Assembly: GCA_046331705.1 (NCBI GenBank)
Contig: JAXLQJ010000002.1
Span: forward strand, 78,370 to 142,369
From: a bacterium
GTDB taxonomy: Bacteria > JADJOY01
Direction of reading: 5' to 3'
DNA: 64,000 nt
The translations under genes and the position numbers were made by a program. Below the pieces are notes generated by a model that was not told the origin of the DNA, did not search any database, and saw nothing but the letters and a program-made list of their open reading frames with translations. Of this stretch, positions 2,131-64,000 are shown piece by piece. Positions within the stretch are counted from its first letter, which is position 1, and every line of letters begins with the position of its first letter.

Positions 2131-2152
2131 GGCCGAGCCTCGTCCTTTCGCC

Positions 2153-3877: not shown

Positions 3878-3930
3878 GAAGCCTCCCAGACTCGTCCCGT
3901 CACCCCACCGATCGACCGCCCCGGCGCCCG

Positions 3931-5559: not shown

Positions 5560-5656
5560 GAGATCCCTCGCGCCTCACTCGCGCCTCACGCGCGCCTCTC
5601 GCGCGCGGCGCGCAGCGCCCTCGCGGGGCTTCGCGCTTGCCATCGATGCGAAACGC

Positions 5657-7384: not shown

Positions 7385-7455
7385 CCGGACTCCCTTCTCT
7401 CGTCATCCGCCTGTCGATCGATACGGTGACTCCCCTGCGTCTTGTGCCACGCAGC

Positions 7456-8301: not shown

Positions 8302-8475
8302 TCGACGGTATTTCAGGTGCGCAAGCAACTTGCGTGACCTGCAGCACGCAACGATGAAATATTTTTCGAATGGCTCACGGCGCGACGAGACGGTGCGCGG
8401 CGAGAATTTCGAGCGATCGAAGCGCTGGGTGACGGGCGTCACATTTTCAGCCGGCGGCGCTGTTCCATGATGCAA

Positions 8476-8491
8476 GTAGAACGTGTTCTAA
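8476..8491. promoter_or_regulatory. second operator-like palindrome GTAGAACGTGTTCTAA
   Basis: Core TAGAACGTGTTCTA is a perfect 14-bp palindrome fitting TnnAACnnGTTnnA; about 75 bp upstream of the acyl-CoA dehydrogenase start. Confidence 0.55.
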
Positions 8492-8562
8492 TCGAACCGA
8501 CGCGCCGCGGACGGACGGCGGCGGCACAGGCGATCCGCGGCGGATCGTGGAGCGAGCACGGC

Positions 8563-9744: not shown

Positions 9745-9754
9745 CGAGGCAAAC

Positions 9755-10744
9755 ATGGCCGCCACCCCATCCGATCGCGAGCAGCTCGAGACGAGACTCA
9801 AGGGGTTCGCGGGCATCGCCGCGGGGCCGCCGGAGATCGCCCGCGACGTGGTGGAAGCCGCGACGATCCGCCAATGGTGCGATGCCCTCGACGATCGCAA
9901 CCCGATCTACACCGACCCCGCGGCCGCCGCCGCGTCGGTCCACGGCCGTGTGGTCGCTCCGCCCACCATGCTGCAGGCGTGGGTGCTGCCGGGCATCGAG
10001 ATGGCCAGCGGGGTCGCGCGCCCCGGCGACAAGCAGCGCGAGCTGCACGCGCTCCTCGACCGCCACGGCTACACCGGCGTCGTGGCCACCAATTGCCAGC
10101 AGGGCTACGACCGCTATCTGCACCTGGGCGAGCGCGTGACCGGCACCACCGTCATCGAGTCGATCTCGGGCGAGAAGGCGACCGCGCTCGGTATCGGCTA
10201 CTTCATCGACACGCGCACCACCTTCCGCGACGACGACGGCGAGCGCGTGGGATGGATGACGTTCCGCGTGCTCAAGTTCAAGCCCGCAGCGCCCCCTGCC
10301 GCGAGCGAGCGCGACGCCGCGGGCGCGCCCGTCAAGCCCCGGCGGCTGCGGCCCGCGCTGGGTCACGACAACGCGTGGTGGTGGGAAGGGATCCGCCGCG
10401 GCGAGCTGCTCATCCAGCGCTGCAAGAGCTGCGGCCACCTGCGCCATCCGCCGCGACCGATGTGCGGCGAGTGCCGTTCGCTCGAATGGGACGCGCTCTC
10501 CTCGAAGGGCCACGGCAGCGTCTACAGCTTCGTGGTGATGCACCACCCGCAGGTGCCCGGCTACGAGTACCCGCTCATCGTGGCCCTCGTCGAGCTCGAC
10601 GAAGGCACCCGGCTGATCGCGAACCTCACGGGCATCGAGCCCCGCGCCGTGCGCATCGGGCTGCGGGTCGCGCTCGCCATCGAAGCCGTCGATCCCGAGC
10701 TCAGCTTGCCGTTCTTCCACCCCGACACCACCGCACCGGGCTGA
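9755..10744 (+). CDS. MaoC-like hydratase fused to C-terminal DUF35 OB-fold/Zn-ribbon domain (ChsH2-like architecture)
   Basis: N-terminal hot-dog-like region; C-terminal CKSCGH...CGECRS zinc ribbon followed by an OB-fold-like segment; the same two-domain layout as mycobacterial ChsH2. Confidence 0.8.
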   Translation: MAATPSDREQLETRLKGFAGIAAGPPEIARDVVEAATIRQWCDALDDRNPIYTDPAAAAASVHGRVVAPPTMLQAWVLPGIEMASGVARPGDKQRELHALLDRHGYTGVVATNCQQGYDRYLHLGERVTGTTVIESISGEKATALGIGYFIDTRTTFRDDDGERVGWMTFRVLKFKPAAPPAASERDAAGAPVKPRRLRPALGHDNAWWWEGIRRGELLIQRCKSCGHLRHPPRPMCGECRSLEWDALSSKGHGSVYSFVVMHHPQVPGYEYPLIVALVELDEGTRLIANLTGIEPRAVRIGLRVALAIEAVDPELSLPFFHPDTTAPG

Positions 10745-10746
10745 CC

Positions 10747-11883
10747 ATGGATTTCGCGCTCGACGAGGATCAGCAGTCGCTCCAGGCGCTGGCCCGCCAG
10801 ATCTTGGAACGGGAGGTCACGCCAGCGCGGATTCGCGCGGCGCTGGCGAGCGCGGACGGCATGGATCACGCGCTCTGGTCGACGCTCGCCGACGCGGGCC
10901 TCCTGGGGATCGGCGTTCCCGAGACGCACGGCGGCCTCGGCGGCGGTCTCGAGGCGCTGAGCTTGCTGCTGGTCGAGGTGGGGCGCGCCGTGGCGCCCGT
11001 GCCGGCGCTCGCGTCGCTCGCGCTGGCGGGCCTCGCGATCGCGCGTTTTGGAACCGAGCGGCAACGCGCCGAGCTGCTCGCGCCGCTCGCCGCGGGCCGG
11101 ACCGTTCTCACCGCGGCGCTCGTCGACGGCGAATCGTCCGATCCCCTCCGCCCCGCATGCAGCGCGCGACGCGACGGCGCGAGCTGGGTGATCGACGGCT
11201 CGAAGCGCCAGGTGCCCGCGATCGCCGCCGCCAGCGCGATCGTCGTGCCCGCGCGCACCGAAGGCGGCGTCGGTCTCTTCGTGGTGCCGCCGAGCGCCGC
11301 CGGCGTCGAGCCGAGCCGCCGGCGCTGCTCGAGCGGCGAGCCGATCGCCGATCTGGCCCTCACGGGCGTGCGCGTGGACGCCGACGCGCTGCTCGGCACG
11401 GCGGCGCCCGTCGGCGACGACGCGAGCCGCTGGCTCCACGAGCACGCGCTCGCCGCGACTTGCGCCGTGCACCTGGGTGTCTGCGAGCGCGCGCTCGAGC
11501 TGACCCGCGACTACGTTCGCGAGCGGCGTCAGTTCGGCGTGCCGATCGGCTCGTTCCAGGCGGTGAGCCATCGCGCCGCCGATGGCTTCATCGACGTCGA
11601 GTGCATCCGCTGGACCACCTGGCAGGCGGTGACGCGGGTGGCGCGCGGCCTCGACGCGACCCGCGCGCTCGCCGTCGCGAAGTTCTGGGCCGCCGAGGGC
11701 GGAGCGCGCGTCACCAGCTCCGCGCAGCACCTCCACGGCGGCATCGGCGCCGACCTCGACTACCCGATCCACCGCTATTTCCTGTGGTCGAAGGCGCTCG
11801 AGCTGAGCCTCGGCGGTGCCACCGAGCAGCTCGCGAGGCTCGGTCGCGATCTGGTGACCCGCGGCCCGGAGGTGCTCGCATGA
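10747..11883 (+). CDS. acyl-CoA dehydrogenase (second subunit-like)
   Basis: MDFALDEDQQSLQALARQILEREV start 3 nt after the upstream stop. The track ORF 9874..11883 is an artefactual 5' extension in this frame. Confidence 0.8.
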   Translation: MDFALDEDQQSLQALARQILEREVTPARIRAALASADGMDHALWSTLADAGLLGIGVPETHGGLGGGLEALSLLLVEVGRAVAPVPALASLALAGLAIARFGTERQRAELLAPLAAGRTVLTAALVDGESSDPLRPACSARRDGASWVIDGSKRQVPAIAAASAIVVPARTEGGVGLFVVPPSAAGVEPSRRRCSSGEPIADLALTGVRVDADALLGTAAPVGDDASRWLHEHALAATCAVHLGVCERALELTRDYVRERRQFGVPIGSFQAVSHRAADGFIDVECIRWTTWQAVTRVARGLDATRALAVAKFWAAEGGARVTSSAQHLHGGIGADLDYPIHRYFLWSKALELSLGGATEQLARLGRDLVTRGPEVLA

Positions 11884-12308
11884 ACGACTGCGCGCTTCGC
11901 CTTCGCGACGTGAACGTGGGCGACGTGCTGCCCGAGCTGGCGATCGACGTCACCACCACCCTGATCGTCGCAGGCGCCCTCGCCTCGCACGACTTCACGC
12001 CCGTTCACCACGACAAGGCCGCTGCCCGAGCGCAGGGCTTGAACGACGTGTTCATGAACATCCTCACGACCAACGGCCTGGTGGGGCGCTACGTCACCGA
12101 TTGGGCCGGGCCGAACGCGCGGCTCACCGGCGTCGCGATCAAGCTCGGAGCGCCCAACCTGCCCGGCGACACGATGCGCATGTCGGGCGTCGTCAAGAGC
12201 AAGGACGACGCGCGCGGCTCCGTCGAGGTCGAGGTCACCGGCAAGAACTCGTGGGGAAACCACGTGACCGCGACGGTCGCGTTGCTGCTGCCCGAGGACG
12301 CCGCGTGA
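11880..12308 (+). CDS. MaoC family dehydratase, small hot-dog subunit (ChsH1-like)
   Basis: ATGA start/stop overlap with the upstream gene; GGAGG RBS; 142 aa MNDCALRLRDVNVGDV...; tail of track ORF 11157..12308. Confidence 0.75.
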   Translation: MNDCALRLRDVNVGDVLPELAIDVTTTLIVAGALASHDFTPVHHDKAAARAQGLNDVFMNILTTNGLVGRYVTDWAGPNARLTGVAIKLGAPNLPGDTMRMSGVVKSKDDARGSVEVEVTGKNSWGNHVTATVALLLPEDAA

Positions 12309-12357
12309 CGGCGCAGCTCCCGTCCGGACGCGCACCGAGCAGCGAGCGGAGCCACGC

Positions 12358-13530
12358 ATGCCCACGACGTTGAGGGATCAGGCCGCGATCGTCGGCATCG
12401 GCGAGACCGACTACTCGAAGAACTCGGGGCGCTCCGAGGTTCAGCTCGCCAGCGAAGCGGTCGCCGCCGCCCTCGACGACGCCGGGCTGCGCCCCTCCGA
12501 CGTCGACGGCATGACCACGTTCACCCTCGACTCGAGCGACGAGATCGAGGTGGCGCGTGCCGTGGGCATCCGCGACCTCACGTTCTTCAGCCGCGTGCCC
12601 CACGGCGGCGGCGCCGCGGTCGGCGTGGTCCATCAAGCGGCGATGGCGGTCGCCACCGGCGCGGCGCGCACGGTGGTGTGCTACCGCGCGCTCAACGGCC
12701 GCTCGGGTCAGCGCTACAGCTCCGGCGTCGCCGACGGGCCGACCACCTCCGATCTCATCCATTGGAGCTGGTACATGCCCTTCGGCCTCATGACGCCCGC
12801 GAGCTGGGTGGCGATGTTCGCCCAGCGCTACATGCACGAGTACGGCGTCACCAGCCTCGACTTCGGGCGGGTCGCGGTGTCGACGCGCAAGCACGCGGTG
12901 CGCAATCCGCGAGCGTTCTTCCACGGCAAGCCGCTCTCGATCGCCGAGCACCAGGCGTCGCGGCTGATCGTCGAGCCGTTGCGTCTCTACGATTGCTGCC
13001 AGGAGACCGACGGCGGCTGCGCCTGCATCGTGACCACGCCCGACCGCGCGCGCGATTGCCGCCAGCCCGCCGCGACGATTCGCGGCGTCGCGCAAGGCTC
13101 GTGCGCCGATCAGGAAGTGATGACCAGCTTCTATCGGCCGAGCATCTCCGGGCTGCCCGAGATGGACCTGGTGGCGCGCCAGGTCTACGACGTCTCGGGC
13201 TTGCGCCCAGACGACGTGGACGCGGCGGTGATCTACGACGCCTTCTCGCCCATCGTGCTGTGGCAGCTCGAGAGCTTCGGCTTCTGCAAGGTCGGCGAAG
13301 CGCGCGATTTCGTGAACGGCGGCAATCTCGAGATCGGCGGGCGCCTGCCGAGCAACACCCACGGCGGGCAGCTCAGCGAGGCCTACGTCCACGGCATGAA
13401 CGGCGTGAACGAGGGCGTGCGGCTGATCCGCGGCACCTCGTGCAATCAACCGCGGCGCAACGATCACGTGCTGGTCACCGCCGGCGTGGGCGTTCCGACC
13501 AGCGCCATGATCCTCGGCAAGACCGCGTGA
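12358..13530 (+). CDS. thiolase-like lipid-transfer protein (SCP-x type, Ltp2-like)
   Basis: IVGIGETDYSKNSGRSE thiolase-like N-terminus; CCQETDGGCACIV; GGAG RBS. Confidence 0.8.
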   Translation: MPTTLRDQAAIVGIGETDYSKNSGRSEVQLASEAVAAALDDAGLRPSDVDGMTTFTLDSSDEIEVARAVGIRDLTFFSRVPHGGGAAVGVVHQAAMAVATGAARTVVCYRALNGRSGQRYSSGVADGPTTSDLIHWSWYMPFGLMTPASWVAMFAQRYMHEYGVTSLDFGRVAVSTRKHAVRNPRAFFHGKPLSIAEHQASRLIVEPLRLYDCCQETDGGCACIVTTPDRARDCRQPAATIRGVAQGSCADQEVMTSFYRPSISGLPEMDLVARQVYDVSGLRPDDVDAAVIYDAFSPIVLWQLESFGFCKVGEARDFVNGGNLEIGGRLPSNTHGGQLSEAYVHGMNGVNEGVRLIRGTSCNQPRRNDHVLVTAGVGVPTSAMILGKTA

Positions 13531-14799
<1,269 letters not shown>

Positions 14800-14874
14800 G
14801 CTTCCGCGCCGACCAGCGGACCGCGTCGAACCACGCGAGGACCTCGACAACCCGAGCATGCGGAGGAGCTGGCG

Positions 14875-15810
14875 ATGACGACGAACGCGAGGCCGCTCGA
14901 AGGGAAGGTCGCGATCGTGACGGGCGCGGGACGTGGGCTGGGACGCGCCGAAGCGCTGGCGCTCGCCGCGCACGGCGCGCGCGTGGTGATCAACGACCTC
15001 GGCGTGGCGGGGGACGGCTCGGGCGCGGACGAGGGCCCCGCACGCGAGGTGGTGGCCGAGATCGAGCGCGCCGGTGGCGAGGCGATCGCCCATTTCGGCG
15101 ACGTCGCGCGCTGGGACGACGCGGCGGCGCTGGTGGCGCGGGCGGTCGACGTGTTCGGCGATCTGCACGTCCTCGTGAACAACGCCGGCTTCAGCCGCGA
15201 TCGCATGATCTTCAACATGTCGGAGCAGGATTGGGACTCGGTGATCCGCGTCCATCTCAAGGGCCATTTCTGCACCTCGCGATTCGCCACCGCGCATTGG
15301 AGGGAGCAGGCGAAGGTCGCGGGTGGCCCGGTCTACGGGCGCATCGTCAACACCGCGTCCGAGGCGTTCCTGTTCGGACCGGCCGGGCTGGCCAACTACG
15401 CCGCCGCGAAGTCGGGAATCGTCGGCCTCACCGTCGCCACCGCGCACGCGTGCGAGAAATACGGCGTGACGGCCAACGTGGTGTGCCCGCGGGCACGCAC
15501 CCGCATGAACAGCGAAGGGAGCCTCGGCGCGCTGTTCGCCAAGCCCGAGCAGGGATTCGACACCTACGACCCCGCCAACGTGGCGCCGCTGGTGGCGTAC
15601 CTCGCGTCGCCTGCCGCCGGGCGCATCAACGCCCACGTGTTCCTGGCGTGGGGAACGCAGGTCTGCTTGATCGGCGCGCCGCGCGTCCTCGAGACCTTCA
15701 CGAGCGACGCGCGCTGGACGGTCGACCGGCTCGACGAGCGCGTCGGCCGCTACCTGGAGACCCGCGATCCCGCCTCCACGGCGTTCGCCGCCGAGCTTCC
15801 CGGGATCTGA
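14875..15810 (+). CDS. SDR family oxidoreductase, MFE-2/Hsd4A-like hydroxyacyl-CoA dehydrogenase
   Basis: [13 protein letters not shown] cofactor motif, [14 protein letters not shown] segment, YAAAK catalytic motif; GGAGGAG RBS. Confidence 0.8.
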
Positions 15811-15832
15811 GCCGCGCGCGCGAGCCGTGCCG

Positions 15833-16615
15833 TCAGGACGCCTCGGCCTTCTCGATCAGCTTCCAGAGCAGCTTGGGCGCGAAGCGCCGGAGCCCGAGCA
15901 AGAACTTCGCCTCGCCGGTGGGGAAGACGATCTCGTCGCCGCGCTCGAGCGCTTCCTCGACCAGCTCCACGATGCGCTCCGGCTTCGCCAGCCGGCCCTG
16001 CTCGATGCCGATCTGGATCGAACGCGGATTGGATCCCTCGATCGCCTGCTCGAGCAGCGGCGTGTCCACCATCGGCGGACAGACGAGCAGGATGCGCACG
16101 CCGCTACCGCGATTCTCGTGGATCAACACCTCGGCGAAGATGTTCACCGCCGCCTTGCTGGCGTTGTAGGCGCCGAGGTGCGGAGTGGGCACCAGGCCCG
16201 CGAGCGAACCGTAGAAGATCCAGTCGCCCGCGCGGCGCGCGACCATCGCGGGCAAGGTGGCGGTGGCGAGATGGAGGGTGCCTTCGTAGTTGATGCGCAT
16301 GACGCGGCGGATGGTCTCGACCGGCATGGTCAGCAGCGGCGCCGTGGGCATGATCGCCGCCGCGTGAGTCACGCGGTCGACGGCGCCGAGCTCCGCGCCG
16401 ACGCGCTCCACGGTGGCGCGCACCTCGTCGAGATTCGCGAGGTCGCAGCGATAGGTGCGCACGCTGGCGCGCCCGGCGGCGGTGCGCGCGAGCCCCTCTT
16501 CGTTCACGTCGAGCGCCGCGACCGTGGCCCCCGCGTCGGCCAACCGCCACGCGGAGAGTTGCCCCATGCCACTGGCGGCGCCGGTGACCAAGGCGAGCTT
16601 CCCGTGAAAGGCCAT
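15833..16615 (-). CDS. SDR family oxidoreductase
   Basis: MAFHGKLALVTGAASGMG start (ORF 15833..16705 trimmed to ATG at 16615); YNASKAAV catalytic motif. Confidence 0.75.
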   Translation of the reverse strand: MAFHGKLALVTGAASGMGQLSAWRLADAGATVAALDVNEEGLARTAAGRASVRTYRCDLANLDEVRATVERVGAELGAVDRVTHAAAIMPTAPLLTMPVETIRRVMRINYEGTLHLATATLPAMVARRAGDWIFYGSLAGLVPTPHLGAYNASKAAVNIFAEVLIHENRGSGVRILLVCPPMVDTPLLEQAIEGSNPRSIQIGIEQGRLAKPERIVELVEEALERGDEIVFPTGEAKFLLGLRRFAPKLLWKLIEKAEAS

Positions 16616-16732
16616 CTGCGTTCCCCCCGCCCGCGGTCGCGCGCCTCGCGCGCGCGAGCGCCGAGCATACGTTTCACCCGCGCGACCACCCGTGACCTCG
16701 ATCACCCTGCTCGCACGTGCCCGACTGCGCCC

Positions 16733-16761
16733 TTGACCCTGGATCGGCGGGCCGGTAATAG
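16733..16761 (+). promoter_or_regulatory. sigma70-like promoter candidate TTGACC-N17-TAATAG
   Basis: Read in an AT-richer intergenic stretch about 45 bp upstream of the sterol desaturase-family gene; GGAGG RBS follows. Confidence 0.3.
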
Positions 16762-16806
16762 TGATTCTGAATTTAGGAATGCTGGTTTTTGAGCGGGAGG
16801 CTCTGC

Positions 16807-17484
16807 ATGTCGGTCGCCGTCGCCGTCGCGATCACGATTGGAATGGTGATGTCCGCCTTCACGATGGGGGCGGTGGTGTGGGGCTTCTACTCGCCGATCA
16901 GCGCCAACATCCGCATCCGGGAAGAGAAGGCGCGCAAGCTCAAGGGCTGGCCGGTGGCGCTGCGGATCGGGCTCAACGGGCTGTTCTCGTCGGGACTCGT
17001 GTACCTGCTCGCGCTGGCCTTGCAGCACCAGCTCTTCTACGCGGCGCGCCCGTCGCTGGCGCGGCTCGCGTTCGAGTCGGTCGCGGTGCTCGTCGTCTAC
17101 GACTTCCTCTACTACTTGCTGCACCGCTATCCGTTTCACGCGTGGCCGGGCTTGCGCGAGGTGCACGCGGTCCATCACCGCGCCAAGTACCCGATCGCGT
17201 TCGACAGCCTCTACCTGAATCCCATCGAGACCCTCGCCGGTCTCGCCTTGCTCACCTTCTGCACCTGGCTGGTCGGGCCGGTGAGCGTGCACGCGTTCGG
17301 GCTGATCTTCTTGGTGTACTCGCAGATGAACATCCTGGTTCACTGCGGGCTCGATCTGCCCGGCGCGCTCCGGCCGTTTGGCTTCATGGCGCGCAAGCAC
17401 GACGCGCATCACCGGCACATGAAGGCCGGCAACTTCGCGTCGCTGACTCCGATCTGGGATCGGCTCTTCCGCACCGCGGAGTGA
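16807..17484 (+). CDS. sterol desaturase / fatty acid hydroxylase superfamily membrane protein
   Basis: Histidine boxes HRYPFH, HAVHHR and HDAHHRH in a hydrophobic protein; start set at ATG 16807 behind GGAGG. Confidence 0.8.
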   Translation: MSVAVAVAITIGMVMSAFTMGAVVWGFYSPISANIRIREEKARKLKGWPVALRIGLNGLFSSGLVYLLALALQHQLFYAARPSLARLAFESVAVLVVYDFLYYLLHRYPFHAWPGLREVHAVHHRAKYPIAFDSLYLNPIETLAGLALLTFCTWLVGPVSVHAFGLIFLVYSQMNILVHCGLDLPGALRPFGFMARKHDAHHRHMKAGNFASLTPIWDRLFRTAE

Positions 17485-26489: not shown

Positions 26490-27479
26490 ATGAAGGTCGC
26501 CGTCACCGGCGCCGCCGGACACGTCGGCGGCAACCTGGTCCGGGCGCTCCTCGAGCGTCGCCACCAGGTGCGCGCGATCGTGTACCAGGACACCCGCGCC
26601 GTCGACGGCCTCGCCGTCGAGCGCGTGCCCGCGGACGTGCTCGACGCCGACCAGGTGCAGCGCGCCTTCGAGGGAGTCGACTGGGTCTTCCACCTCGCCG
26701 CCAAGGTCTCGATCGAGGGCGACCCCGACGGCTCGGTGCACCGCACCAACGTGCTCGGCACACGCCACGTGGTCGAGGCCTGCCTGGCGCGCGGCGTGAA
26801 GCGCCTGGTCCACTTCAGCTCGGTCCACGCGCTGCGCAACGATCCGTACGACGTGCCGATGGACGAAGGGCGCCCGCTCGCCGACGAAGGACATGCCTTC
26901 GCCTACGATCTCTCGAAGGCCGGTTCGGAACGCGAGGTCCAGGCGGGCATCAAGCGCGGCCTCGACGCCGTGATCGTGAATCCCACCGCCATCCTCGGCC
27001 CCAGCGACTTCAAGCCGTCGCGCATGGGTCAGGTGCTCGTCGATCTCCACTTCCGGCGCTTACCGGCGCTGGTGGCCGGCGGCTTCGACTTCGTGGACGT
27101 GCGCGACGTCGCCGAGGGCGCCATCGCCGCCGCCGAGAGAGGCCGCACCGGCGAGCGCTACCTGCTCGGCAACGAGTACCGGCCGGTGCGCGAGCTCGCC
27201 GGGCTCTGCCGCGACGTCGCCGGCATCCGACCGCCGCGCTTCACGTCGCCGCTTTGGCTCGCCAGGGCCGGAGCGCCGTTCGCCGTCGCGTGGGCCAAGG
27301 TCTCCGGCACGCGCCCGCTCTTCACCGAGGAGTCCCTGCACGCGCTCGCGGGCAATCCCAACGTGAGTCACGAGAAGGCCACCCGCGAGCTCGGCTATCG
27401 ACCGCGCCCGCTCGCCACGAGCGTCGCCGACACCTACGGCTGGCTGCGCGAAGCCGGCCTGCTCGAAACCAAGACGTGA
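26490..27479 (+). CDS. NAD-dependent epimerase/dehydratase family protein (extended SDR, 3beta-HSD-like)
   Basis: MKVAVTGAAGHVGGNLV Rossmann start; YDLSK catalytic motif; tail of track ORF 25485..27479. Confidence 0.8.
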   Translation: MKVAVTGAAGHVGGNLVRALLERRHQVRAIVYQDTRAVDGLAVERVPADVLDADQVQRAFEGVDWVFHLAAKVSIEGDPDGSVHRTNVLGTRHVVEACLARGVKRLVHFSSVHALRNDPYDVPMDEGRPLADEGHAFAYDLSKAGSEREVQAGIKRGLDAVIVNPTAILGPSDFKPSRMGQVLVDLHFRRLPALVAGGFDFVDVRDVAEGAIAAAERGRTGERYLLGNEYRPVRELAGLCRDVAGIRPPRFTSPLWLARAGAPFAVAWAKVSGTRPLFTEESLHALAGNPNVSHEKATRELGYRPRPLATSVADTYGWLREAGLLETKT

Positions 27480-27486
27480 GGCATCG

Positions 27487-28248
27487 ATGACCGAGCATCA
27501 GCTCTACATGTGGGTGGTCTGGATCTGGCTCGGCCTCGCGGCGTTCACCTTCGTCTCGCTGTTCTTCTTCACCGCTCCCTACGGGCGCCATGCGCGCGCC
27601 GGCTGGGGGCCGATGATCGAGCGCACGGCCGCGTGGATGATCATGGAATCGCCGGTGGTCTTCCTGCCGCTGATCCTGTTCTTGGTGAGCGACCGGCGCG
27701 CGCTGGTGCCGTACGGGATCTTCCTGCTGATCTGGGAGTTTCACTACGTCCACCGCACCTTCGTGTTCCCGTTCCGGCTGCGCGGCGGCCAACCCCAGAT
27801 GCCGCTCTCGATCGTGGCGAGCGCGATCGTGTTCAACGTCGGCAACGCCTATCTGCAAGCGCGCTGGCTCTTCCACCTGCGCGAGCCCTATCCCGCCACT
27901 TGGCTGAGCGATCCGCGCTTCGCCATCGGCCTGGTGCTCTTCGCCGTCGGCTTCGCCATCAACTACCACTCCGACGGGATCACGCGGAATCTGCGCAAGC
28001 CCGGCGAGACCGGCTACAAGATCCCCTACGGTGGGTTCTTCCGCTGGGTGTCGGCGCCCAACTACCTGGGCGAGCTGATCGAGTGGACCGGCTGGGCGAT
28101 CCTCACGTGGTCGCGCGGCGGTGTGGTGTTCGTGATCTGGAGCGCCGCGAACCTGGTGCCGCGCGCGATCGCCAACCACCGCTGGTACCGCGAGAAGTTC
28201 CCGGACTACCCGCCCGAGCGTCGCGCCATCGTTCCCGGGCTGCTCTGA
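27487..28248 (+). CDS. 3-oxo-5-alpha-steroid 4-dehydrogenase (steroid 5-alpha-reductase / DUF1295) family membrane protein
   Basis: C-terminal GGFFRWVSAPNYLGELIEWTGWAI matches the SRD5A-family signature; multi-pass hydrophobic protein; starts 7 nt after the upstream stop. Confidence 0.8.
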   Translation: MTEHQLYMWVVWIWLGLAAFTFVSLFFFTAPYGRHARAGWGPMIERTAAWMIMESPVVFLPLILFLVSDRRALVPYGIFLLIWEFHYVHRTFVFPFRLRGGQPQMPLSIVASAIVFNVGNAYLQARWLFHLREPYPATWLSDPRFAIGLVLFAVGFAINYHSDGITRNLRKPGETGYKIPYGGFFRWVSAPNYLGELIEWTGWAILTWSRGGVVFVIWSAANLVPRAIANHRWYREKFPDYPPERRAIVPGLL

Positions 28249-46379: not shown

Positions 46380-47198
46380 ATGGAACCCAAGCTCGCGGTA
46401 TTCGTGGACTTCGAGAACATCGAGCGCGGCATCGAAGAGGCCGGGCTCGGCAAGTTCCAGGTGGACTTGGTGCTGAATCGCCTGCGCGAGAAAGGCAAGG
46501 TGATCGTGTCGCGGGCCTACGCCGACTGGGGTCGGTACACGGCCTACAAGTTCGATTTCCAGGACCACGGCATCGATCTGATCGAGCTACCGTCGCGCCG
46601 CAAGGGCCAGAAGAACATGGCCGACATCAAGATGGTGGTGGACGCGCTCGACTACGCGTGGAAGTGGTCCTACATCGACTCGTTCGTGATCGTCTCGGGC
46701 GACAGCGACTTCACGCCGCTGATCTCGAAGCTGCGCGAGTACAACCGCTTCGTGATGGGCATGGGCGTACGCAAGTCCACCTCGACGCTGATCGCCGACA
46801 CCTGCGACGAGTTCGTCTACTACGACGATCTGGTGCGCATCAAAGAGAAGCAACGCGAGCGGCGCCGCATCGACGACGACCCGAGCCAGGTCTTCACGCT
46901 GCTCGTCGAGACGGTGGACGCGATGAAGGCGAGCCACGAGGTCATCCTGAGCTCCATGGTCAAGCAGACCATGCTGCGCAAGAAGCCGGATTTCGACGAG
47001 CGCGCGCTCGGCTTCCGCACCTTCAAGCGGCTGCTCGAGAACGCGCGCGACAAGGGCCTGATCGGCTTGGTGCGCGACGAGCGCAGCGGCACCTATCGGA
47101 TCGTCGAGCCCGAAGAGGGTGCCGCGGCGCAACCCGTCAAGAGCGTTCGATCCGAACGACCAGCGGCGGGTGCGCCCCCGGATGGCGGCGTAACGTGA
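46380..47198 (+). CDS. NYN domain (LabA-like) protein
   Basis: LAVFVDFENI...VSRAYADW...VIVSGDSDFTPL pattern of NYN/LabA nucleases; GAGGAAATGA RBS context. Confidence 0.8.
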   Translation: MEPKLAVFVDFENIERGIEEAGLGKFQVDLVLNRLREKGKVIVSRAYADWGRYTAYKFDFQDHGIDLIELPSRRKGQKNMADIKMVVDALDYAWKWSYIDSFVIVSGDSDFTPLISKLREYNRFVMGMGVRKSTSTLIADTCDEFVYYDDLVRIKEKQRERRRIDDDPSQVFTLLVETVDAMKASHEVILSSMVKQTMLRKKPDFDERALGFRTFKRLLENARDKGLIGLVRDERSGTYRIVEPEEGAAAQPVKSVRSERPAAGAPPDGGVT

Positions 47199-47808
47199 GC
47201 GTGCCGGTCTCGTCCGTCGCGAGCCCGCGGACCACGACCACGCGATTGAGCGGGATGACGCGCTCGATGAACTTGAAGCCGAGCGTCTGGACGTCCATGC
47301 GACGATCGAGATCGGCCGTCAGCACGTAAGGGAACTCCTTGACCTTGAGCTTGGCCTCGGTCTGGCTCGCGAGCCCGATGCGCTCGAAGCGCTCGACGAT
47401 GGTCTCCGACTCGAATTGCGCGCCTTCGGGATCGACGGTCACCTCGTCGTCCCGATCGCCGAGCCAGAAGATGCCGCACGAGCGGCGCTTCGCCATCAGC
47501 ACGTCCTGACCGCTCGAGGAATCCTGGTCGCCGAGCAGCGGCAGCGCGCCGTCGCGGGCCTTGCGCTTCCAGAGGCGTTCGACGACGTACTCGTAGTAGA
47601 TGCACGGGCTCGAATCGATGCCGGAGCGCAAGGCCGCGGGCGTGCGCGCCATGCCGCTCACCTCGACCGGTAGACGGAAGGTTCCTTTCGGGTGCCGCGA
47701 ACGGTGTTCCTGATACGACCGCACGAGCTCGCGCACCGACACCACGCGCCCGGGCGCGAGCGCACCGGGGCTTGGCGTGGGAACGTCGGGACGCTGCATG
47801 AGTCGCAA
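47137..47808 (-). CDS. hypothetical protein
   Basis: ORF with non-shadow composition (Lys, Phe, Tyr, Ile present); convergent 62-bp overlap with the NYN gene; start uncertain. Confidence 0.35.
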   Translation of the reverse strand: MRLMQRPDVPTPSPGALAPGRVVSVRELVRSYQEHRSRHPKGTFRLPVEVSGMARTPAALRSGIDSSPCIYYEYVVERLWKRKARDGALPLLGDQDSSSGQDVLMAKRRSCGIFWLGDRDDEVTVDPEGAQFESETIVERFERIGLASQTEAKLKVKEFPYVLTADLDRRMDVQTLGFKFIERVIPLNRVVVVRGLATDETGTLTLRRHPGAHPPLVVRIERS

Positions 47809-47853
47809 GACCGGATCCTCGGGCGCGCCAGGCTCGCCGGCACGGTCGCTCCG

Positions 47854-48969
47854 TTACTCGAAGATGTCTCGAACGCGATCGAAGAACCCACGATCCTCCG
47901 GCGGCGAGGCCCCATCCTCGCGCGCGAGCGCCTCGTAGAGCTCGCGCTGCCGGGCGTTCAGCTCGTCGGGAACGTGGACGCGAATGCGTACTTTCTGATC
48001 GCCGCGGCCGGCGGCGCTGCCCGACGGCATCCCCTTGTTCCGCAAGCGATAGATGCGCCCGGGCTGGGTCCCGGGCTGCGTCTTCATGCGGATCGGACCA
48101 TCGAGCGTGGGAATCTGCACCTCGGTACCGAGCGCCGCCTGCGCGACGGTCAACGTCAGGTCGTAGATGAGGTCCGCACCCTCGCGCTTGAACTGGGGAT
48201 GCTCCTGGATCTGCACCACCACGTAGAGATCGCCGGCGCCGCCCCCGGCGATCCCCATCTCGCCCTCGCCCTGCAGCCGGAGCCGGCTCTCGTGCTCGAC
48301 GCCCGCAGGCACGCGCACCTTGAGCTCGTGGCGCGCCTTCACCGAGCCCGCGCCCTGACACCGCGAGCACGGATCTCGCACGATTCGTCCTCGCCCCTCG
48401 CATTGCGTGCAGGGCTTCGAGACGCTGAAGAAGCCTTGCTGCAGGCGAACCTGCCCCGAACCGCGACAGCTCGGGCACGTCGTCGAGCCGGTGGCGCTCG
48501 CGGCGCCGGTGCCATTGCAGTGGGCGCATGGCCGGCGGCGCGGCACACGGACGCGCTTCTCCGTGCCGAACGCGGCTTCTTCCAGCGTGATCTCGAGGTT
48601 GTAGCGCAGGTCGGTGCCACGCTCGCCGCGTGACTGCGAGCCCGGGCCGCGGCCACCGAAGATGTCGTTGAAGAGATCGCCGAAGAGATCCTGGAAGTTG
48701 CCCGGTCCTTGCGGGCCGGCCCCCGGACGGGCACCACCGAAGGGGCCACCCGCCGAGCCAAAGCGATCGTAGTTCGCCCGCTTCGGCGGATCGCTGAGCA
48801 CCGAGTACGCCTCGGAGAGCTCCTTGAAGCGCTCCTCTGCCGCTGGATTCCCGGGATTCTTGTCCGGATGACACTCGTGGGCGAGGCGGCGATACGCCTT
48901 CTTGAGGTCATCGGGCGTCGCGTTCCGGGACACCCCCAGCACTTGGTAGTAATCGCGGGCCGCGCTCAC
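47854..48969 (-). CDS. dnaJ: molecular chaperone DnaJ
   Basis: J-domain DYYQVLGV...HPDKNP; four CxxCxGxG zinc-finger repeats; start set at GTG 48969 behind GGAGG, giving a GTGA overlap with the upstream Hsp70-like stop. Confidence 0.85.
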
Positions 48970-50756
48970 GACGACAGCACCTCCGGCGTCGCCGACGAAC
49001 GAAGCCACGGCGCGAGCGCCCTGGCGGCGTGCTGGATTCGCTCGAGATCGGCGCTCGCGAGCGCGCTGCGAGCGCGCTCCATCGCCACGCCGAGATCACG
49101 CTCCGACGCCGCGTTTCCGCGCAGCCGTCCCTCGCCCAGGATGCGCGCGGTGGTGAGCAGCTGCCCGTCCAGCATCCAACGGGCGCGCAACAACCCCTCG
49201 TGGCCGCGTTGCGATTCGAGCAATCGATCCAGCTCGTGCGTGATGTCCGCCAGCGCGGGAACGGCGCCCTCCAGCCGCTCCAGCGCAGCGGTCTCGAGCG
49301 AGCCCGGCGCGCGCACGCCCACCGCGAGCCGCCCGTCGGTACTGGCCTCGACGACCAGCTCGACCCGACGGAAGTCGTTCCGCGGGCCGGAATCGGACGC
49401 CATCCGGAACGAGGCCAGCGAGGCTCCGAGCTCCGCCCGGTCGACCTCGCCCTCGATGAGCTCGACCGGCTGCCGTCCGAGGGCCGAGACCGGATACGGC
49501 CCGCTCACCGTCGCCGGCAGCGGCGCGAAGCGATCGACGAACCGCAGCACCCCGCCGTCGGGATTGCGGACGCCGATGGCGTGAGGCGCGACCTGCAAGA
49601 GGAAGACGTCCGGGACGTCGCCCTCGCGGCGGGCTCCGTGAAGACACGCACCCACCGCACCCCACGGCGTGCGGTCCGGGTCGATCCGCACCTCGCGCGC
49701 CGCGCGAGCGCGCAGCGCTTGCGCGACGAACGTGATCGACGGCGCGCCGCCCACGACCTGCCAGCGCGACACCCGATCCGGCGCCGTGCCCTTGAGCACC
49801 GACGCCAGCTCCTCCTCGAACGCGCCGAGCAACGGCCGCGCGAGCTCGCGAAGCCGATCCCCGTCGACCTCGACGTCGAGGTGGCGCGGGCCGGCGGCGG
49901 TGAGCGCCAGGTACGGCACCGTCACCCGCGTCGGCACCTTGGGTTGCGACCGCAGACGCGCCAGCCCGTCCTCGCACGCGGCGCGCAGCCGTGCCACCGA
50001 TCGCGGCCGCATGCCGGCATCCAGGATCAGCTCGCCCTCGAAGGGCGCGGCGAGGAACCGCATCATGCGGACGAGAAGATCGTCGCCCAGCCCAGCCACC
50101 CTGCCGCCCATGCGCTCGAGCTCGATCGCCTCGTCGGAAAGATCGATCAGCGCCGCGCCGACGCTCGCGCTCTCGTGCTCCACCAAGCCCACGGTTCCCC
50201 GCGCTCCCGAGTCGTGGAGCGCGGTGGCGATCGCGGCGGCGGCCGGCAACGTGTGCACCTGCTCGAACCCCGCGGCGCGCGCCGCCAACGCGACGCGCTC
50301 GCGCGCCGTCGCGCCGTACCACGTCGGATAAGCGATCGACGCGACGCCGATCGAGCGTCCGATCCAATCGCTGGCTCCCTGACGAAGCCGCGCGAGCAAG
50401 CAGGCGACCAACGCCGTGACGCTCCACTCCGCGCCCCGGATGCCGAGCTGCGGCCCGGTCGCGTCGAGGCGCGGCTGCGGCAGCGAGAGCAACGCCGCGT
50501 CGTCGGACGGGACGGTGCGCGCGAGCCCCAGCGCATGCACGAGACGAGCCGCCGCCCCGTCCGGATCGGAGACCGACCGCGCGCGCGCATCGTGGCCGAC
50601 GCGAACCAAGCCGGCGGCGTCCACGTGGACGATCGCCGGCCCCTCCAACGCCGTGGCGGCCAGACGCTGCATGCGCTCGCCCTTGCCGCGCATGACCACG
50701 CCGGCGAGCTGGCGATCGGAGAGATCGATGCCGAGTATCGGCTCGTGCAACCCCAC
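48966..50756 (-). CDS. Hsp70-family (actin-like ATPase fold) protein, highly divergent
   Basis: [17 protein letters not shown]-terminus (compare DnaK GIDLGTT); [15 protein letters not shown]...[16 protein letters not shown] matches the Hsp70 adenosine motif, but phosphate-2 DLGGGTFD is not recognisable. Confidence 0.6.
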
Positions 50757-50933: not shown

Positions 50934-51884
50934 TCAGTCATCGTCCGAGGAATCCTCGCCATTTCGGGTCGAAACCTTGGGCGCCGGCCCACCGAGCGCG
51001 ACGCGATCGGGAGCCGGCTTGGGTGCCGCCTTGGCGACGGCCACCATCGCGGGCCTGAGCAAACGGTCCTTGTAACGATAGCCCTTCACGTACTCGCTGG
51101 CGACGTGTCCCGGTGGCACGTCACCGCTCTCGACCTGGGTCATCGCGTCGTGCAACTGGGGATCGAACACGGTGCCCACCGAAGAGAAGGGCTCCACCCC
51201 GAACTTCGCGAGCGTGTGCAGGATCTGGTTGTGGGTGATCTTGACGCCCTCGGCGATCGAGGCGACGTCGTTGGCTTGCGAGGCGGCGCCGAGCGCGCGC
51301 TCCAGGTTGTCGATCGCCGGCAGCATCTCCCGGAGCAGCTCCTCTTGCGCGTACTGAACCGCATCGGCCTTGTCCTTCGCCGAGCGGCGTCGATAGTTCT
51401 CGAAATCCGCTTGAAGCCTCAGCCGCGCCTCGTAGCTCTTCTCACCCTCGGCCTTGGCCTCGGCGAGCTGCTTCTCGACCTCGGCCAAGTGGCGCTCGAG
51501 CTGCTGAAGGAGCTTGGCCGGGACCTTCTTGCCCTTCTTCTTGCCGAGCTCGGCATCCTCCGACTGTCCCTTGTCCGGCGTGGGCTCCGAACCCGAGCCC
51601 GCTTCCTCGCCGATGCCGGCGTCGCCACGTCGCAGCTGCTCGAGGAACGCCTCCGCGAGCGCGGCCGCTTCGGCCACGGCCTTGGACTTGTGGGCACCAT
51701 CCTCGCCAGCGCCGCCGGCGGGCGCGGGCTCGGCGCCGGGCTCCTGCGTGATGCCCGGTGCGTCGTCGTTGTTGGACGGCGGGTTGCGACTGGCATCTCG
51801 TTCCGACAAGGACAGCCTCTCTTCCCTGGCAAGGGTTGCGAATGGTGCTCGTACGCGTCCTGGCGGCGGCCCGTCCGCTCGCAA
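50934..51884 (-). CDS. grpE: nucleotide exchange factor GrpE
   Basis: RLQADFENYRRRSAKDK signature; start uncertain (long Ala/Pro-rich N-terminus). Confidence 0.8.
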   Translation of the reverse strand: MRADGPPPGRVRAPFATLAREERLSLSERDASRNPPSNNDDAPGITQEPGAEPAPAGGAGEDGAHKSKAVAEAAALAEAFLEQLRRGDAGIGEEAGSGSEPTPDKGQSEDAELGKKKGKKVPAKLLQQLERHLAEVEKQLAEAKAEGEKSYEARLRLQADFENYRRRSAKDKADAVQYAQEELLREMLPAIDNLERALGAASQANDVASIAEGVKITHNQILHTLAKFGVEPFSSVGTVFDPQLHDAMTQVESGDVPPGHVASEYVKGYRYKDRLLRPAMVAVAKAAPKPAPDRVALGGPAPKVSTRNGEDSSDDD

Positions 51885-51908: not shown

Positions 51909-52970
51909 CTAGCGCGGTTCCAGGAATCGGCTGATGAGCTGCGCCGTGTATTCGACCATGGGGATGATTCGCGAATAGTCCAGCCGCGTGGGGCCGAGGA
52001 TTCCGATCGAGCCAATCACTTGAGGCCCGCGTCGATACGGCGACGACACCACGACCAGATCGTCGACTCCGTCGATCCCGGCCTCCGAGCCGATCGAGAC
52101 GCACACACCGCCGGCGACGCGCGCGCGATCGAGGATGTTCACGATCCGCTCCCGATCCTCCAGCGCCTCGATCAGCGCCCGGACTCGCTCGGGCTCGCTG
52201 AACTCGCGGTGCGCGAGCAGGCTCGAGGTGCCTTCGACGAACACCTCGCCTTGACCCTCGTTCTCGAACACGCAGCGACTGACCGCGAGAATGCGGCGCG
52301 AGAGATCATCGATCAGCTCGCGGTCGCGGGCCAGCTCGTCCAGCAGACGGTCGCGCACCTGGTCGAGCGGTGCTCCCGTGAGGCGTTCGCAGAGCAGCTC
52401 CGTGAGCCGATTCAAGCGGGTCTGGGCGACGTCCTCGTCGAGGCGCACGATGCGATTCACGATCACGCCCGTCGACGACACGAAGATGACCAGGATCTCC
52501 GCGGGCCGCAGCCGCACGAAGTCGACGTGCTGGAACACCGCGTCGCCCAGCATCGGCGCCACCGCCATCCCCGGGCAACGCGAGAGCCGCGACAACGCCC
52601 GCGACGCGTCCCGCAAGCACGCCGCGAGCCCACCCTCCGAGCTCGCCGTCACCTGGTTGAGCGACTGGCGATCCGCGCGGCTCAGGGTGTAATCCGCCAT
52701 GCGCGTCTCGACGAACCAGCGAAACGCGTGCTCGGTGGGCACCCGGCCGGCCGACGTGTACGGATGCGACAGCAACCCGGCGTCCTCCAGGTCCATCATC
52801 TCGTTTCGGACCGTGGCCGGGCTCACGTCGAGCCCGTGCGCGCGAGTCAGGGTTCGCGAGCCCACCGGCTCACCCGAGGCGATGTAGGTCTCGATCACCA
52901 GCTCGAGGACCCGGCGGCTGCGCTGTGGCAGCTCGTCGATGGATCGCGGCGTGCGGCTGGTCGTGGTCAT
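51909..52970 (-). CDS. hrcA: heat-inducible transcription repressor HrcA
   Basis: N-terminal winged helix RSRRVLELVIETYIASGEPVGSRTL; overall HrcA-like length and organisation; directly upstream of grpE. Confidence 0.85.
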   Translation of the reverse strand: MTTTSRTPRSIDELPQRSRRVLELVIETYIASGEPVGSRTLTRAHGLDVSPATVRNEMMDLEDAGLLSHPYTSAGRVPTEHAFRWFVETRMADYTLSRADRQSLNQVTASSEGGLAACLRDASRALSRLSRCPGMAVAPMLGDAVFQHVDFVRLRPAEILVIFVSSTGVIVNRIVRLDEDVAQTRLNRLTELLCERLTGAPLDQVRDRLLDELARDRELIDDLSRRILAVSRCVFENEGQGEVFVEGTSSLLAHREFSEPERVRALIEALEDRERIVNILDRARVAGGVCVSIGSEAGIDGVDDLVVVSSPYRRGPQVIGSIGILGPTRLDYSRIIPMVEYTAQLISRFLEPR

Positions 52971-53277
52971 GACTGAGCGGTGCGGGAGCGAGAGCGCAAC
53001 TTTGAGACGCGGTTAGCGTCAAGCTATCAGTCGCCATTTCGGCATGTCAAGCAAGACTTCCGCCATCGCGTCCGGCAAAACTCGATTGATTTCGACACCT
53101 TATGGCTTGACGTCGGGGCGCGATCCGGGTCATGCCCGACGCACCACCGAGCCGATGTTGCACATGCGGCGCCAACTCCTCGCCGCCACGCCACGATCCC
53201 GCGGGGTCATGCGCCGAGATGAAACGCAGGTTTGGGAATTGCCAGTCGCGGTCCGGCGCGGGTATGGTCGGCGCAGC

Positions 53278-53583
53278 ATGGCTCGCCCAACCAAGCGGAT
53301 CTCGGAGCGTGAAAGCGCCGAGATCCAGCTCCTCGATACGCTCGAAGAAGTGGCACGCCAGGTCGGCGTGGAGGTGGTTCACGACCACATCCGCGCCGAG
53401 GGCTTCATGTCGCGTGGCGGCTCGTGTCGCTTGCGGGATCGCTGGATGATCCTGCTCGACCGCAAGATGCCCACGTCGGACAAGGTGGATCTGCTCGCCA
53501 CCGAGCTCCGCCAGTGGCCGATCGACGGGGTCTTCGTCCCCCCCGCGATCCGCCACTTGCTCGAGCCGCGCTCCGCTTCCTGA
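53278..53583 (+). CDS. hypothetical protein (101 aa)
   Basis: Tail of ORF 53044..53583 from ATG 53278 (MARPTKRISERESAEIQLLDTLEE); followed by a short GGGTGC/GCACCC hairpin. Confidence 0.35.
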   Translation: MARPTKRISERESAEIQLLDTLEEVARQVGVEVVHDHIRAEGFMSRGGSCRLRDRWMILLDRKMPTSDKVDLLATELRQWPIDGVFVPPAIRHLLEPRSAS

Positions 53584-62710: not shown

Positions 62711-63454
62711 TCATTCGCTCGTGAGCGCGTCGCGCAACACCTGCCGCTGAGCCAGATTCAGAAACTCCGTCCGAAACCCTTCCAGCTCGCCGGCAAGGTA
62801 TCCGATCTGATTGTGAAACAGATTGTAAAAAAGCACCGCCGGGATCGCCGCTGCCAAGCCCGCCGCCGTCGCGATCAGCGCCTCGGCGATGCCCGGTGCG
62901 ACCGCCTGAACGGTGGATGCGGCACCCGCGCTGATTCCCTGGAATGCGCGGATGATGCCGAGCACCGTGCCGAAGAGACCGATGAACGGGGTGGCGCTGG
63001 CGGTGGTCGCGAGCAGCCCCAGGCCGCGCTCGAGCTTGCGCACTTGCAGGCTGATCGATGCGTCGAGCGCGCGCTCCACCGTGGTGAGACCCACCACGCG
63101 CACGGCTTCCACCAGCGATTGCTTGGCCGAAGGCCCACCGAGACTGCCGAGCGCCTTGAGCTCGCGGTAGCCCGCGCGAAACACCTCGGCCTCGAGCGCG
63201 TGCGTGAAGCGCGGCGCCTGATCGTAGATCGAGCTCAGGCTGCGCGCTTCCCAGAAGACCTTCACGAACTCGACACCCTGCGTCCGGCTCGCGCGAATCT
63301 CGCGCCACTTCCAGAGGATCACCGCCCAGCTCGCCACCGAGAACACGCACAGCATCAACATCACGAGCTTGGCGTCGAGCCCCGCGTGACGCAGCAAGCT
63401 CACGATGCTCTGGCCGGCGGCTCCGGTCGCGATCACGAAAGTCGGTGGGTGCAT
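62711..63454 (-). CDS. tolQ: proton-channel protein TolQ/ExbB (MotA/TolQ/ExbB family)
   Basis: Three TM segments with conserved C-terminal region ATPFIGLFGTVLGIIRAF. Confidence 0.85.
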   Translation of the reverse strand: MHPPTFVIATGAAGQSIVSLLRHAGLDAKLVMLMLCVFSVASWAVILWKWREIRASRTQGVEFVKVFWEARSLSSIYDQAPRFTHALEAEVFRAGYRELKALGSLGGPSAKQSLVEAVRVVGLTTVERALDASISLQVRKLERGLGLLATTASATPFIGLFGTVLGIIRAFQGISAGAASTVQAVAPGIAEALIATAAGLAAAIPAVLFYNLFHNQIGYLAGELEGFRTEFLNLAQRQVLRDALTSE

Positions 63455-63875
63455 GGAGGTTCGCTCGCCCCGCTCCGTGGCAGCACCGGATACGCGGGCG
63501 ATGAGTTCGCTGAGCGTTGGGGGATCTGCGGACCTTCTATGAATCGGCCGGGTGACGGGCCGATGGAGCCAGGGGTTCGCGCACTGGGCTGGCGAGACGG
63601 AAGACGCGACCCTCGCGGCCAGCGCCGCCCCTCGATGCGCGCAGGATGATCGAAAGGCCGGGCCGCGTCAATGCGATCCCGGCTCCACGGCGCGCCGCCG
63701 AGGCCGCGGATCGCGGGCCGGTTCCGTCGCGATCCCGCGAGCTTGCCGGGTCGCGGGGGTTGCGCCGATCCGCCGGGAACGTTCCACGGGGCCACCCTTC
63801 CGCGGCTCGACGCGCTCGGGCCACCGATCCCTCGCCGGCGGGAAATCGCAGGCACGGTTCATGACGTCGAGACGG

Positions 63876-63904
63876 TTGACGGGCACGAATCCGTGGATAA
63901 GATT
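63876..63904 (+). promoter_or_regulatory. sigma70-like promoter candidate TTGACG-N16-TAAGAT
   Basis: Read directly; immediately upstream of the CIRCE-like inverted repeat, as at groE-type promoters. Confidence 0.3.
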
Positions 63905-63905
63905 C

Positions 63906-63932
63906 CTGGCACTCACCGATTCGGAGTGCTAA
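63906..63932 (+). promoter_or_regulatory. CIRCE-like inverted repeat CTGGCACTC-N9-GAGTGCTAA (HrcA operator-like)
   Basis: Perfect GCACTC/GAGTGC arms with 9-nt spacer; right arm identical to the CIRCE consensus half GAGTGCTAA; left arm differs at two flanking positions. Confidence 0.5.
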
Positions 63933-64000
63933 CAGGGGTTCGTTTGCGACCCGGCGGGTGCGCCGGCGCGTGGGCGTCCATCCGTTCCGCGCCAGCTCGC

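Follow-up and report, generated by a model that had tools for sequence, protein, structure and literature searches.

A predicted CIRCE operator at a stand-alone groEL gene, and an hrcA operon without one, in an uncultured bacterial lineage related to the delta-proteobacteria

[quoted passage not shown] Our analysis suggests, with a probability that we put at roughly 0.85, that the repeat at 63906-63932, at the right-hand edge of the window, is a functional CIRCE for the HrcA encoded 11 kb away and that it controls a stand-alone groEL gene, with hrcA itself lying outside CIRCE control. The source organism, represented by a metagenome-assembled genome, belongs to an uncultured, high-GC lineage related to the delta-proteobacteria; HrcA binding, repression and heat induction at groEL would be expected by comparison with characterized systems. 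The features on which this reading is built are collected in Table 1.

Table 1. Chaperone-related features of the window, their positions and the basis of each assignment
Feature	Positions	Strand	Basis and remarks
Putative sigma-70-like groEL promoter	63876..63903	+	-35 TTGACG 63876-63881, 16-nt spacer, -10 TAAGAT 63898-63903; promoter scan
Predicted CIRCE operator, CTGGCACTC-N9-GAGTGCTAA	63906..63932	+	Consensus match, shuffles, conservation in four species
groEL 5' leader, first part	63933..64000	+	Identity with contig L003; runs beyond the window to the ribosome-binding site and ATG
tolQ, first gene of tolQ-tolR-tolA-tolB-pal-cpoB	62711..63454	-	Pfam MotA_ExbB, downstream genes, synteny; divergent neighbour of groEL, outside the predicted regulon
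Small gene, 101-aa protein	53278-53583	+	Shares the hrcA promoter region; clade-specific in that position
Divergent intergenic region between hrcA and the small plus-strand gene	52971..53277	.	307 bp; without CIRCE, sigma-32 consensus or HAIR
Putative sigma-70-like hrcA promoter	53021..53050	-	-35 TTGACA 53050-53045, 18-nt spacer, TG 53029-53028, -10 TAGCTT 53026-53021; read from the sequence
hrcA	51909..52970	-	Pfam PF01628 E=5e-56; TIGR00331 292.6 bits (cut-off 197.2)
grpE, second gene of the hrcA operon	50934..51884	-	Pfam GrpE E=1.4e-49; synteny kept in related loci
Divergent Hsp70-family gene at the usual dnaK position	48966..50756	-	Pfam HSP70 100 bits; DnaK equivalog model 127 bits (cut-off 648)
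dnaJ, last chaperone gene of the operon	47854..49008	-	Pfam DnaJ, DnaJ_C, DnaJ_CXXCXGXG

Results

The operator and its promoter

On the plus strand, positions 63906-63932 read CTGGCACTCACCGATTCGGAGTGCTAA, which resolves into CTGGCACTC-ACCGATTCG-GAGTGCTAA, an inverted repeat with a 9-nt spacer that matches 16 of the 18 positions of the CIRCE consensus TTAGCACTC-N9-GAGTGCTAA. Both mismatches fall on the outer positions of the left arm, which has CTGG instead of TTAG; the GCACTC-N9-GAGTGC core is perfect, and it is the only perfect core in the window. When up to three mismatches were allowed, this repeat was the sole CIRCE in the 64 kb, none appeared in 100 dinucleotide-preserving shuffles, and a scan of the window at up to four mismatches returned no additional site. 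Elsewhere in the window, the core pattern with two mismatches occurs at chance level (9 matches against 7.1 expected).

The promoter ahead of the repeat, TTGACG-N16-TAAGAT, was also found independently by a promoter scan (9 of 12 matches; three sites in 11 kb, where 0.5 would be expected). CIRCE begins 2 nt past its -10 hexamer and so covers the expected groEL transcription start. An Rfam scan of the whole window gave no match. Both the operator and the promoter had been proposed in the original prediction, and both hold up in these analyses.

Conservation among related species supports the assignment. A TolB query of a species-representative genome collection led to three related uncultured species (L006, L007 and L008; TolB identity 77-86%), all of which have groEL next to a divergent tolQRAB-pal-cpoB-PBP1 cluster. 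Two of them, L006 and L008, run on through an FGGY kinase gene and a small gene to hrcA-grpE, and L007 ends within the FGGY kinase gene. The CIRCE element stands at the same place in all three. In the four-species alignment, which includes the window, the block formed by promoter and CIRCE is 80% invariant, compared with 22-34% in the intergenic DNA on either side. In each CIRCE arm every one of the 9 positions is invariant, the CTGG deviation included, but in the spacer only 5 of 9 are; within the promoter, all 6 positions of the -35 and 5 of the 6 in the -10 are unchanged. Invariant arms around a variable spacer are what is expected of an operator recognized by a protein, since an RNA stem would more likely covary. 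The assignment of the repeat to an HrcA regulon thus draws on four features: a consensus repeat, its location at the promoter of a chaperone gene, a cognate hrcA in the same genome, and conserved arms that flank a variable spacer.

The target is a stand-alone groEL gene

The last gene to lie completely within the window is tolQ, and an exact look-up of its protein returned five short public contigs, among them L003 (GCA_009613035.1, WBZU01035258.1), which is identical to window positions 63455-64000 and extends 525 nt further. Past the window edge, this contig carries a GGAGG ribosome-binding site and then an ATG at window-equivalent position 64065, at which 153 codons of an unmistakable GroEL N-terminus open. 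The 133 nt that separate the end of CIRCE from this ATG contain no open reading frame and no groES. A tblastn search with GroES probes gave no credible match in the window, L003, L006-L008 or L023-L025, the best segment being a short one inside tolR (E=0.007). The target of the CIRCE is a stand-alone groEL, not a bicistronic groES-groEL operon. The original prediction had envisaged a groES/groEL promoter facing out of the window and had advised inspecting the sequence beyond the edge for a chaperonin gene; that inspection yields groEL on an identical contig, and only the groES part of the expectation fails.

The groEL orthologue of L008 (5372-7087, minus strand) is full length, with 571 aa and a score of 843 bits on the TIGR02348 GroEL equivalog model. 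A typical GroEL is shorter, at about 545 aa. The C-terminus of the L008 protein has a His-rich stretch (GGGHAGHGHNHGG) followed by a GGM-repeat tail of about nine MGG repeats.

In a published survey, stand-alone genes made up 14.7% of the groEL genes examined, and groES always preceded groEL in bacteria with a single groEL (PMC5406781). The genome would therefore be expected to have, at some other place, either a groES on its own or another groESL locus.

The hrcA operon is free of CIRCE

HrcA is encoded where the original prediction had placed it, with Pfam and TIGR00331 in agreement; its gene lies on the minus strand. Protein records identical to those of the window exist for HrcA (MFN7950492.1) and TolQ (MFN7950501.1). 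The closest named relative of this HrcA is from a "Deltaproteobacteria bacterium" (77% identity), below which identity falls to about 40%, in Syntrophobacteraceae, Desulfosoma and Thermodesulfobacteriota.

The first upstream neighbour of hrcA, a small gene, lies on the plus strand from 53278, so hrcA must be transcribed from within 52971-53277; a conserved promoter-like site, TTGCCA-N18-TATGGT, stands just before the small gene. The putative hrcA promoter combines a perfect -35 with an extended -10, TGaTAGCTT (53029-53021), and is the best conserved intergenic block in L006, L008, L023, L024/L025 and L026. The best CIRCE-like match in the 307-bp upstream region has 7 mismatches in 18 positions, which is about chance level, and an inverted-repeat search upstream of hrcA returned only two short GC-rich pairs, neither of them resembling CIRCE. 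Searches for other heat-shock signals were likewise negative. The sigma-32 consensus CTTGAAA-N11-17-CCCCAT, which is that of E. coli and the delta-proteobacteria and may differ in this lineage, had no match with up to three mismatches upstream of hrcA or groEL. The HspR-associated inverted repeat (HAIR; CTTGAGT-N7-ACTCAAG), sought in six genomes, gave best matches with 5-7 mismatches in 14 positions, at non-homologous places. A CTTGACG-N9-TCTCAAA sequence downstream of the hrcA -10, considered as a wrongly spaced HAIR, was rejected, as L023 and L026 have not retained it.

The CIRCE-free hrcA promoter is shared by six related loci that comprise five distinct sequences and whose HrcA proteins are 54-91% identical to that of the window (90-91% in L006 and L008, 77% in L023, 74% in L024/L025 and 54% in L026). 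Upstream of hrcA, no CIRCE was found at up to five mismatches in L023, L024, L025 and L026, or at up to four in L006 and L008. Because it is conserved in six related loci, this absence is not an accident of assembly. The observation that no CIRCE repeat precedes hrcA is therefore reproduced beyond the window, and the accompanying suggestion that the hrcA-grpE operon may not be autoregulated through CIRCE gains support from the same loci.

Two outgroups differ from the clade in this respect. In L027 (Syntrophobacteraceae) and L028 (a "Deltaproteobacteria" metagenome-assembled genome), whose HrcA proteins show about 40% identity to that of the window, a perfect CIRCE stands ahead of hrcA-grpE-dnaK. 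It lies 3 nt after the -10 of a TTGACA-N17-TAGGTT promoter in L027 and 8 nt after the -10 of a TTGACA-N17-TATTTT promoter in L028. The hrcA promoter of L027, TTGACA-N17-TAGGTT-GAC, can be set beside TTGACA-N18-TAGCTT-GAC in the window, and the arrangement GCTTGACA...TAGGTTGAC followed by CIRCE in L027 resembles GCTTGACA...TAGCTTGAC followed by no CIRCE in the window. These motifs are short, and their likeness fits a loss of the operator, in this lineage, from an ancestral autoregulated hrcA promoter.

Metagenome contigs of the Joint Genome Institute (JGI) were scanned with an HrcA alignment, which gave 80 diverse loci (L029-L108), 67 of them with at least 300 nt of upstream sequence. A CIRCE with up to four mismatches, within 450 nt upstream of hrcA, was present in 12 of the 67 (18%). 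An hrcA gene without a CIRCE of its own is thus the common state in the JGI sample and not the exception, and the original prediction had overrated how unusual such a gene is. Most of the 12 CIRCE-bearing environmental loci have a lower GC content.

Other observations on the operon and its divergent neighbour

Every clade member keeps two CGAAAT(C) boxes, which stand at 53092-53086 and 53042-53036 on the minus strand of the window, separated by about 50 nt. One falls within the hrcA promoter, in its spacer, and the other is upstream of the -35. They could be the site of an uncharacterized regulator or an UP-like element.

At the Hsp70 position, a normal DnaK of 641-642 aa is encoded in both outgroups, L027 and L028. 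The divergent Hsp70 gene found there in the window is kept in the clade and appears split in L023. After dnaJ follows a gene for a GIDE-domain protein (47137-47853, minus strand), adjoined by one for an NYN-domain protein (46380-47198, plus strand), and this order is kept in L023 and L025.

The 101-aa protein encoded divergently from hrcA is more conserved than HrcA itself. It has a zincin/ImmA-IrrE-like fold with no HEXXH motif and belongs to a broad uncharacterized family of 741 representative clusters. One scenario would combine the loss of an ancestral CIRCE, which would leave HrcA as a dedicated groEL repressor, with a role for this small protein in modulating HrcA or the operon, in the manner of MXAN_4468 in Myxococcus or HagF in Chlamydia; we regard this scenario as speculative and unlikely.

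Discussion

Alternative explanations at the groEL promoter

Two other roles can be imagined for the repeat at the window edge. Its main role might be that of a hairpin in the groEL leader RNA, setting the stability of the mRNA, instead of that of a DNA operator, and the region does fold as a hairpin (-13.5 kcal/mol; z = -2.2 relative to shuffles). However, a repeat that begins 2 nt past the -10 would probably have the transcription start within its left arm, in which case the full hairpin would not be transcribed. In addition, the arms show no compensatory changes, being invariant and not covarying, which fits protein recognition of DNA, and a matching HrcA is encoded nearby. We consider a primary role as a hairpin improbable, and an RNA function of the repeat is at most secondary. 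The palindromic CIRCE could also, or instead, control the divergent tolQRAB-pal operon, given that the repeat lies between tolQ (start at 63454) and groEL in an arrangement conserved in four species. This is scarcely credible, as the tolQ start codon is 452 nt from the repeat, and about 240 nt nearer tolQ lies another conserved block, which has a candidate promoter of its own (TTGACG-N17-CATCCT), the DNA between that block and CIRCE being only 22% invariant. To our knowledge, no HrcA regulon has been reported to include Tol-Pal genes, in a literature that was not searched exhaustively.

Alternative explanations at the hrcA promoter

The proposal that hrcA stands outside CIRCE control has to be weighed against two further readings. 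In one of them, hrcA would still be autoregulated through a degenerate CIRCE, TTGACATGC-N9-GACTGATAG (minus strand, about 53050-53024), overlapping its own promoter. In four genomes this sequence ranks first among the CIRCE-like matches upstream of hrcA, in the same conserved place, with 7 mismatches in 18 positions in the window, L006 and L023, and 5 in L008. Yet its halves are not mutually complementary (4-5 of 9 positions, read by eye), and a 7-mismatch match in 300 bp is close to chance (about 0.35 expected by a binomial estimate), with a second one in the same region. Moreover, its conserved letters are exactly the -35 and the extended -10 of the hrcA promoter. A cryptic operator over that promoter was rejected on account of the non-complementary halves and the coincidence with the promoter hexamers, and we hold it to be very improbable. 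A more serious, if still doubtful, possibility is that stress control of the hrcA-grpE-hsp70-dnaJ operon is exerted not by HrcA but by another factor, either an alternative sigma factor or an uncharacterized regulator acting at the CGAAAT(C) boxes. Sigma-32 drives the dnaK and grpE genes in most proteobacteria (PMC545781), both boxes, one within the hrcA promoter and one upstream of it, are conserved throughout the clade, and the conserved block reaches beyond both promoter hexamers. Nevertheless, the sigma-32 and HAIR searches described above were negative upstream of hrcA, and the conserved hexamers, with their perfect -35, fit a vegetative sigma-70 promoter.

Several points weigh against the CIRCE assignment at groEL or the separation of hrcA from it. 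The left arm departs from the consensus in having CTGG for TTAG. The distance from the operator to the start codon is 133 nt, compared with 45-99 nt in other delta-proteobacteria (PMC545781). The searches for CIRCE and groES cover 64 kb of the source genome, and hrcA may have a regulator without a known motif. On the other side, the architecture of a CIRCE placed after a promoter is also found in the outgroups L027 and L028, upstream of hrcA-grpE-dnaK, and we count this in favour of a CIRCE operator at groEL.

A predicted GroE-titration circuit

The predicted groEL operator would fit the GroE-titration model established for Bacillus subtilis and Caulobacter, in which HrcA is kept folded by GroEL. 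The folded HrcA dimer would bind the operator and block RNA polymerase at the groEL promoter; under proteotoxic stress, unfolded proteins would occupy GroEL, HrcA would become inactive and groEL would be derepressed. The hrcA-grpE-hsp70-dnaJ operon would be read from its CIRCE-free, sigma-70-like promoter. As no CIRCE is present at hrcA, HrcA would not repress its own transcription, and feedback would pass through GroEL only.

Comparison with known HrcA/CIRCE systems

The arrangement corresponds to a textbook HrcA/CIRCE circuit, of a type known already from Desulfovibrio and Myxococcus. Among the HrcA targets of the delta-proteobacteria, groE alone is constant (Rodionov et al. 2004, PMC545781); Desulfovibrio has CIRCE only at groESL, and only Geobacter and Desulfuromonas also have it at hrcA-grpE-dnaKJ (PMC545781). 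As in the window, the CIRCE of Desulfovibrio vulgaris and D. desulfuricans precedes the chaperonin gene and not hrcA (PMC545781). The groESL site of D. vulgaris is listed as cTgGCACTC-N9-GAGTGCcAA (Table 8 of PMC545781), and its left arm is identical to that of the window. The two systems differ in that Desulfovibrio has a groES-groEL operon with CIRCE about 70 nt before the start codon, whereas the window has groEL alone at 133 nt.

Myxococcus xanthus offers the closest parallel for the stand-alone gene: its groEL2 (MXAN_4467; PMC9040617, PMC5406781) also lacks a neighbouring groES and has a promoter-overlapping CIRCE, which HrcA binds in electrophoretic mobility shift assays and isothermal titration calorimetry (PMC9040617). 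HrcA is encoded elsewhere in the M. xanthus genome, just as hrcA is away from groEL here. In M. xanthus, however, CIRCE lies over the -35 and an upstream response regulator, MXAN_4468, aids HrcA binding, whereas in the window CIRCE follows the -10 and the upstream gene is the divergent tolQ.

The hrcA operons of Bacillus subtilis, Geobacter, Desulfuromonas, L027 and L028 resemble that of the window in beginning with hrcA-grpE and in having a similar sigma-70-like promoter. These autoregulated operons carry a perfect CIRCE soon after the -10, which the window and its clade lack, and the dnaK position of the window is occupied by a very divergent Hsp70. In Caulobacter crescentus, CIRCE and HrcA act at the groESL promoter, and GroESL keeps HrcA folded (PMC8119881). 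That groESL promoter is also sigma-32-responsive, whereas the window has no match to the sigma-32 consensus. The Caulobacter hrcA-grpE operon is reportedly driven by sigma-32, according to work ascribed to Roberts et al. in 1996.

For annotation, these findings indicate that the gene just past the window edge is probably a CIRCE-controlled stand-alone groEL. Within the 64 kb, the predicted HrcA regulon is limited to this chaperonin gene, with hrcA-grpE-hsp70-dnaJ outside it, as in Desulfovibrio and many other proteobacteria. Together with outgroups that have a perfect CIRCE behind a similar promoter, the lineage may provide a small, clean example of regulon shrinkage by operator loss.

Other genes of the window

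The block conserved in four species contains the candidate tolQ promoter, TTGACG-N17-CATCCT at 63643-63671 on the minus strand, which is about 190 nt upstream of the ATG annotated for tolQ. The bases just ahead of that ATG, CCTCC, do not form a Shine-Dalgarno sequence, and the frame stays open up to 63667, so the true start of tolQ is uncertain.

At the other end of the window, four consecutive FAD-dependent amine-oxidase/desaturase-like genes (Pfam Amino_oxidase, DAO, NAD_binding_8) occupy 445-7402 on the minus strand. A gene cluster for lipid or steroid-type metabolism (8338-17484 and 27367-28248) includes genes for an acyl-CoA dehydrogenase, a ChsH2-like hydratase (OB fold and zinc ribbon) and a fatty-acid hydroxylase of the sterol-desaturase family, as well as two genes each of the thiolase-like and short-chain dehydrogenase kinds; farther along, a member of the 3-oxo-5-alpha-steroid 4-dehydrogenase family is encoded.
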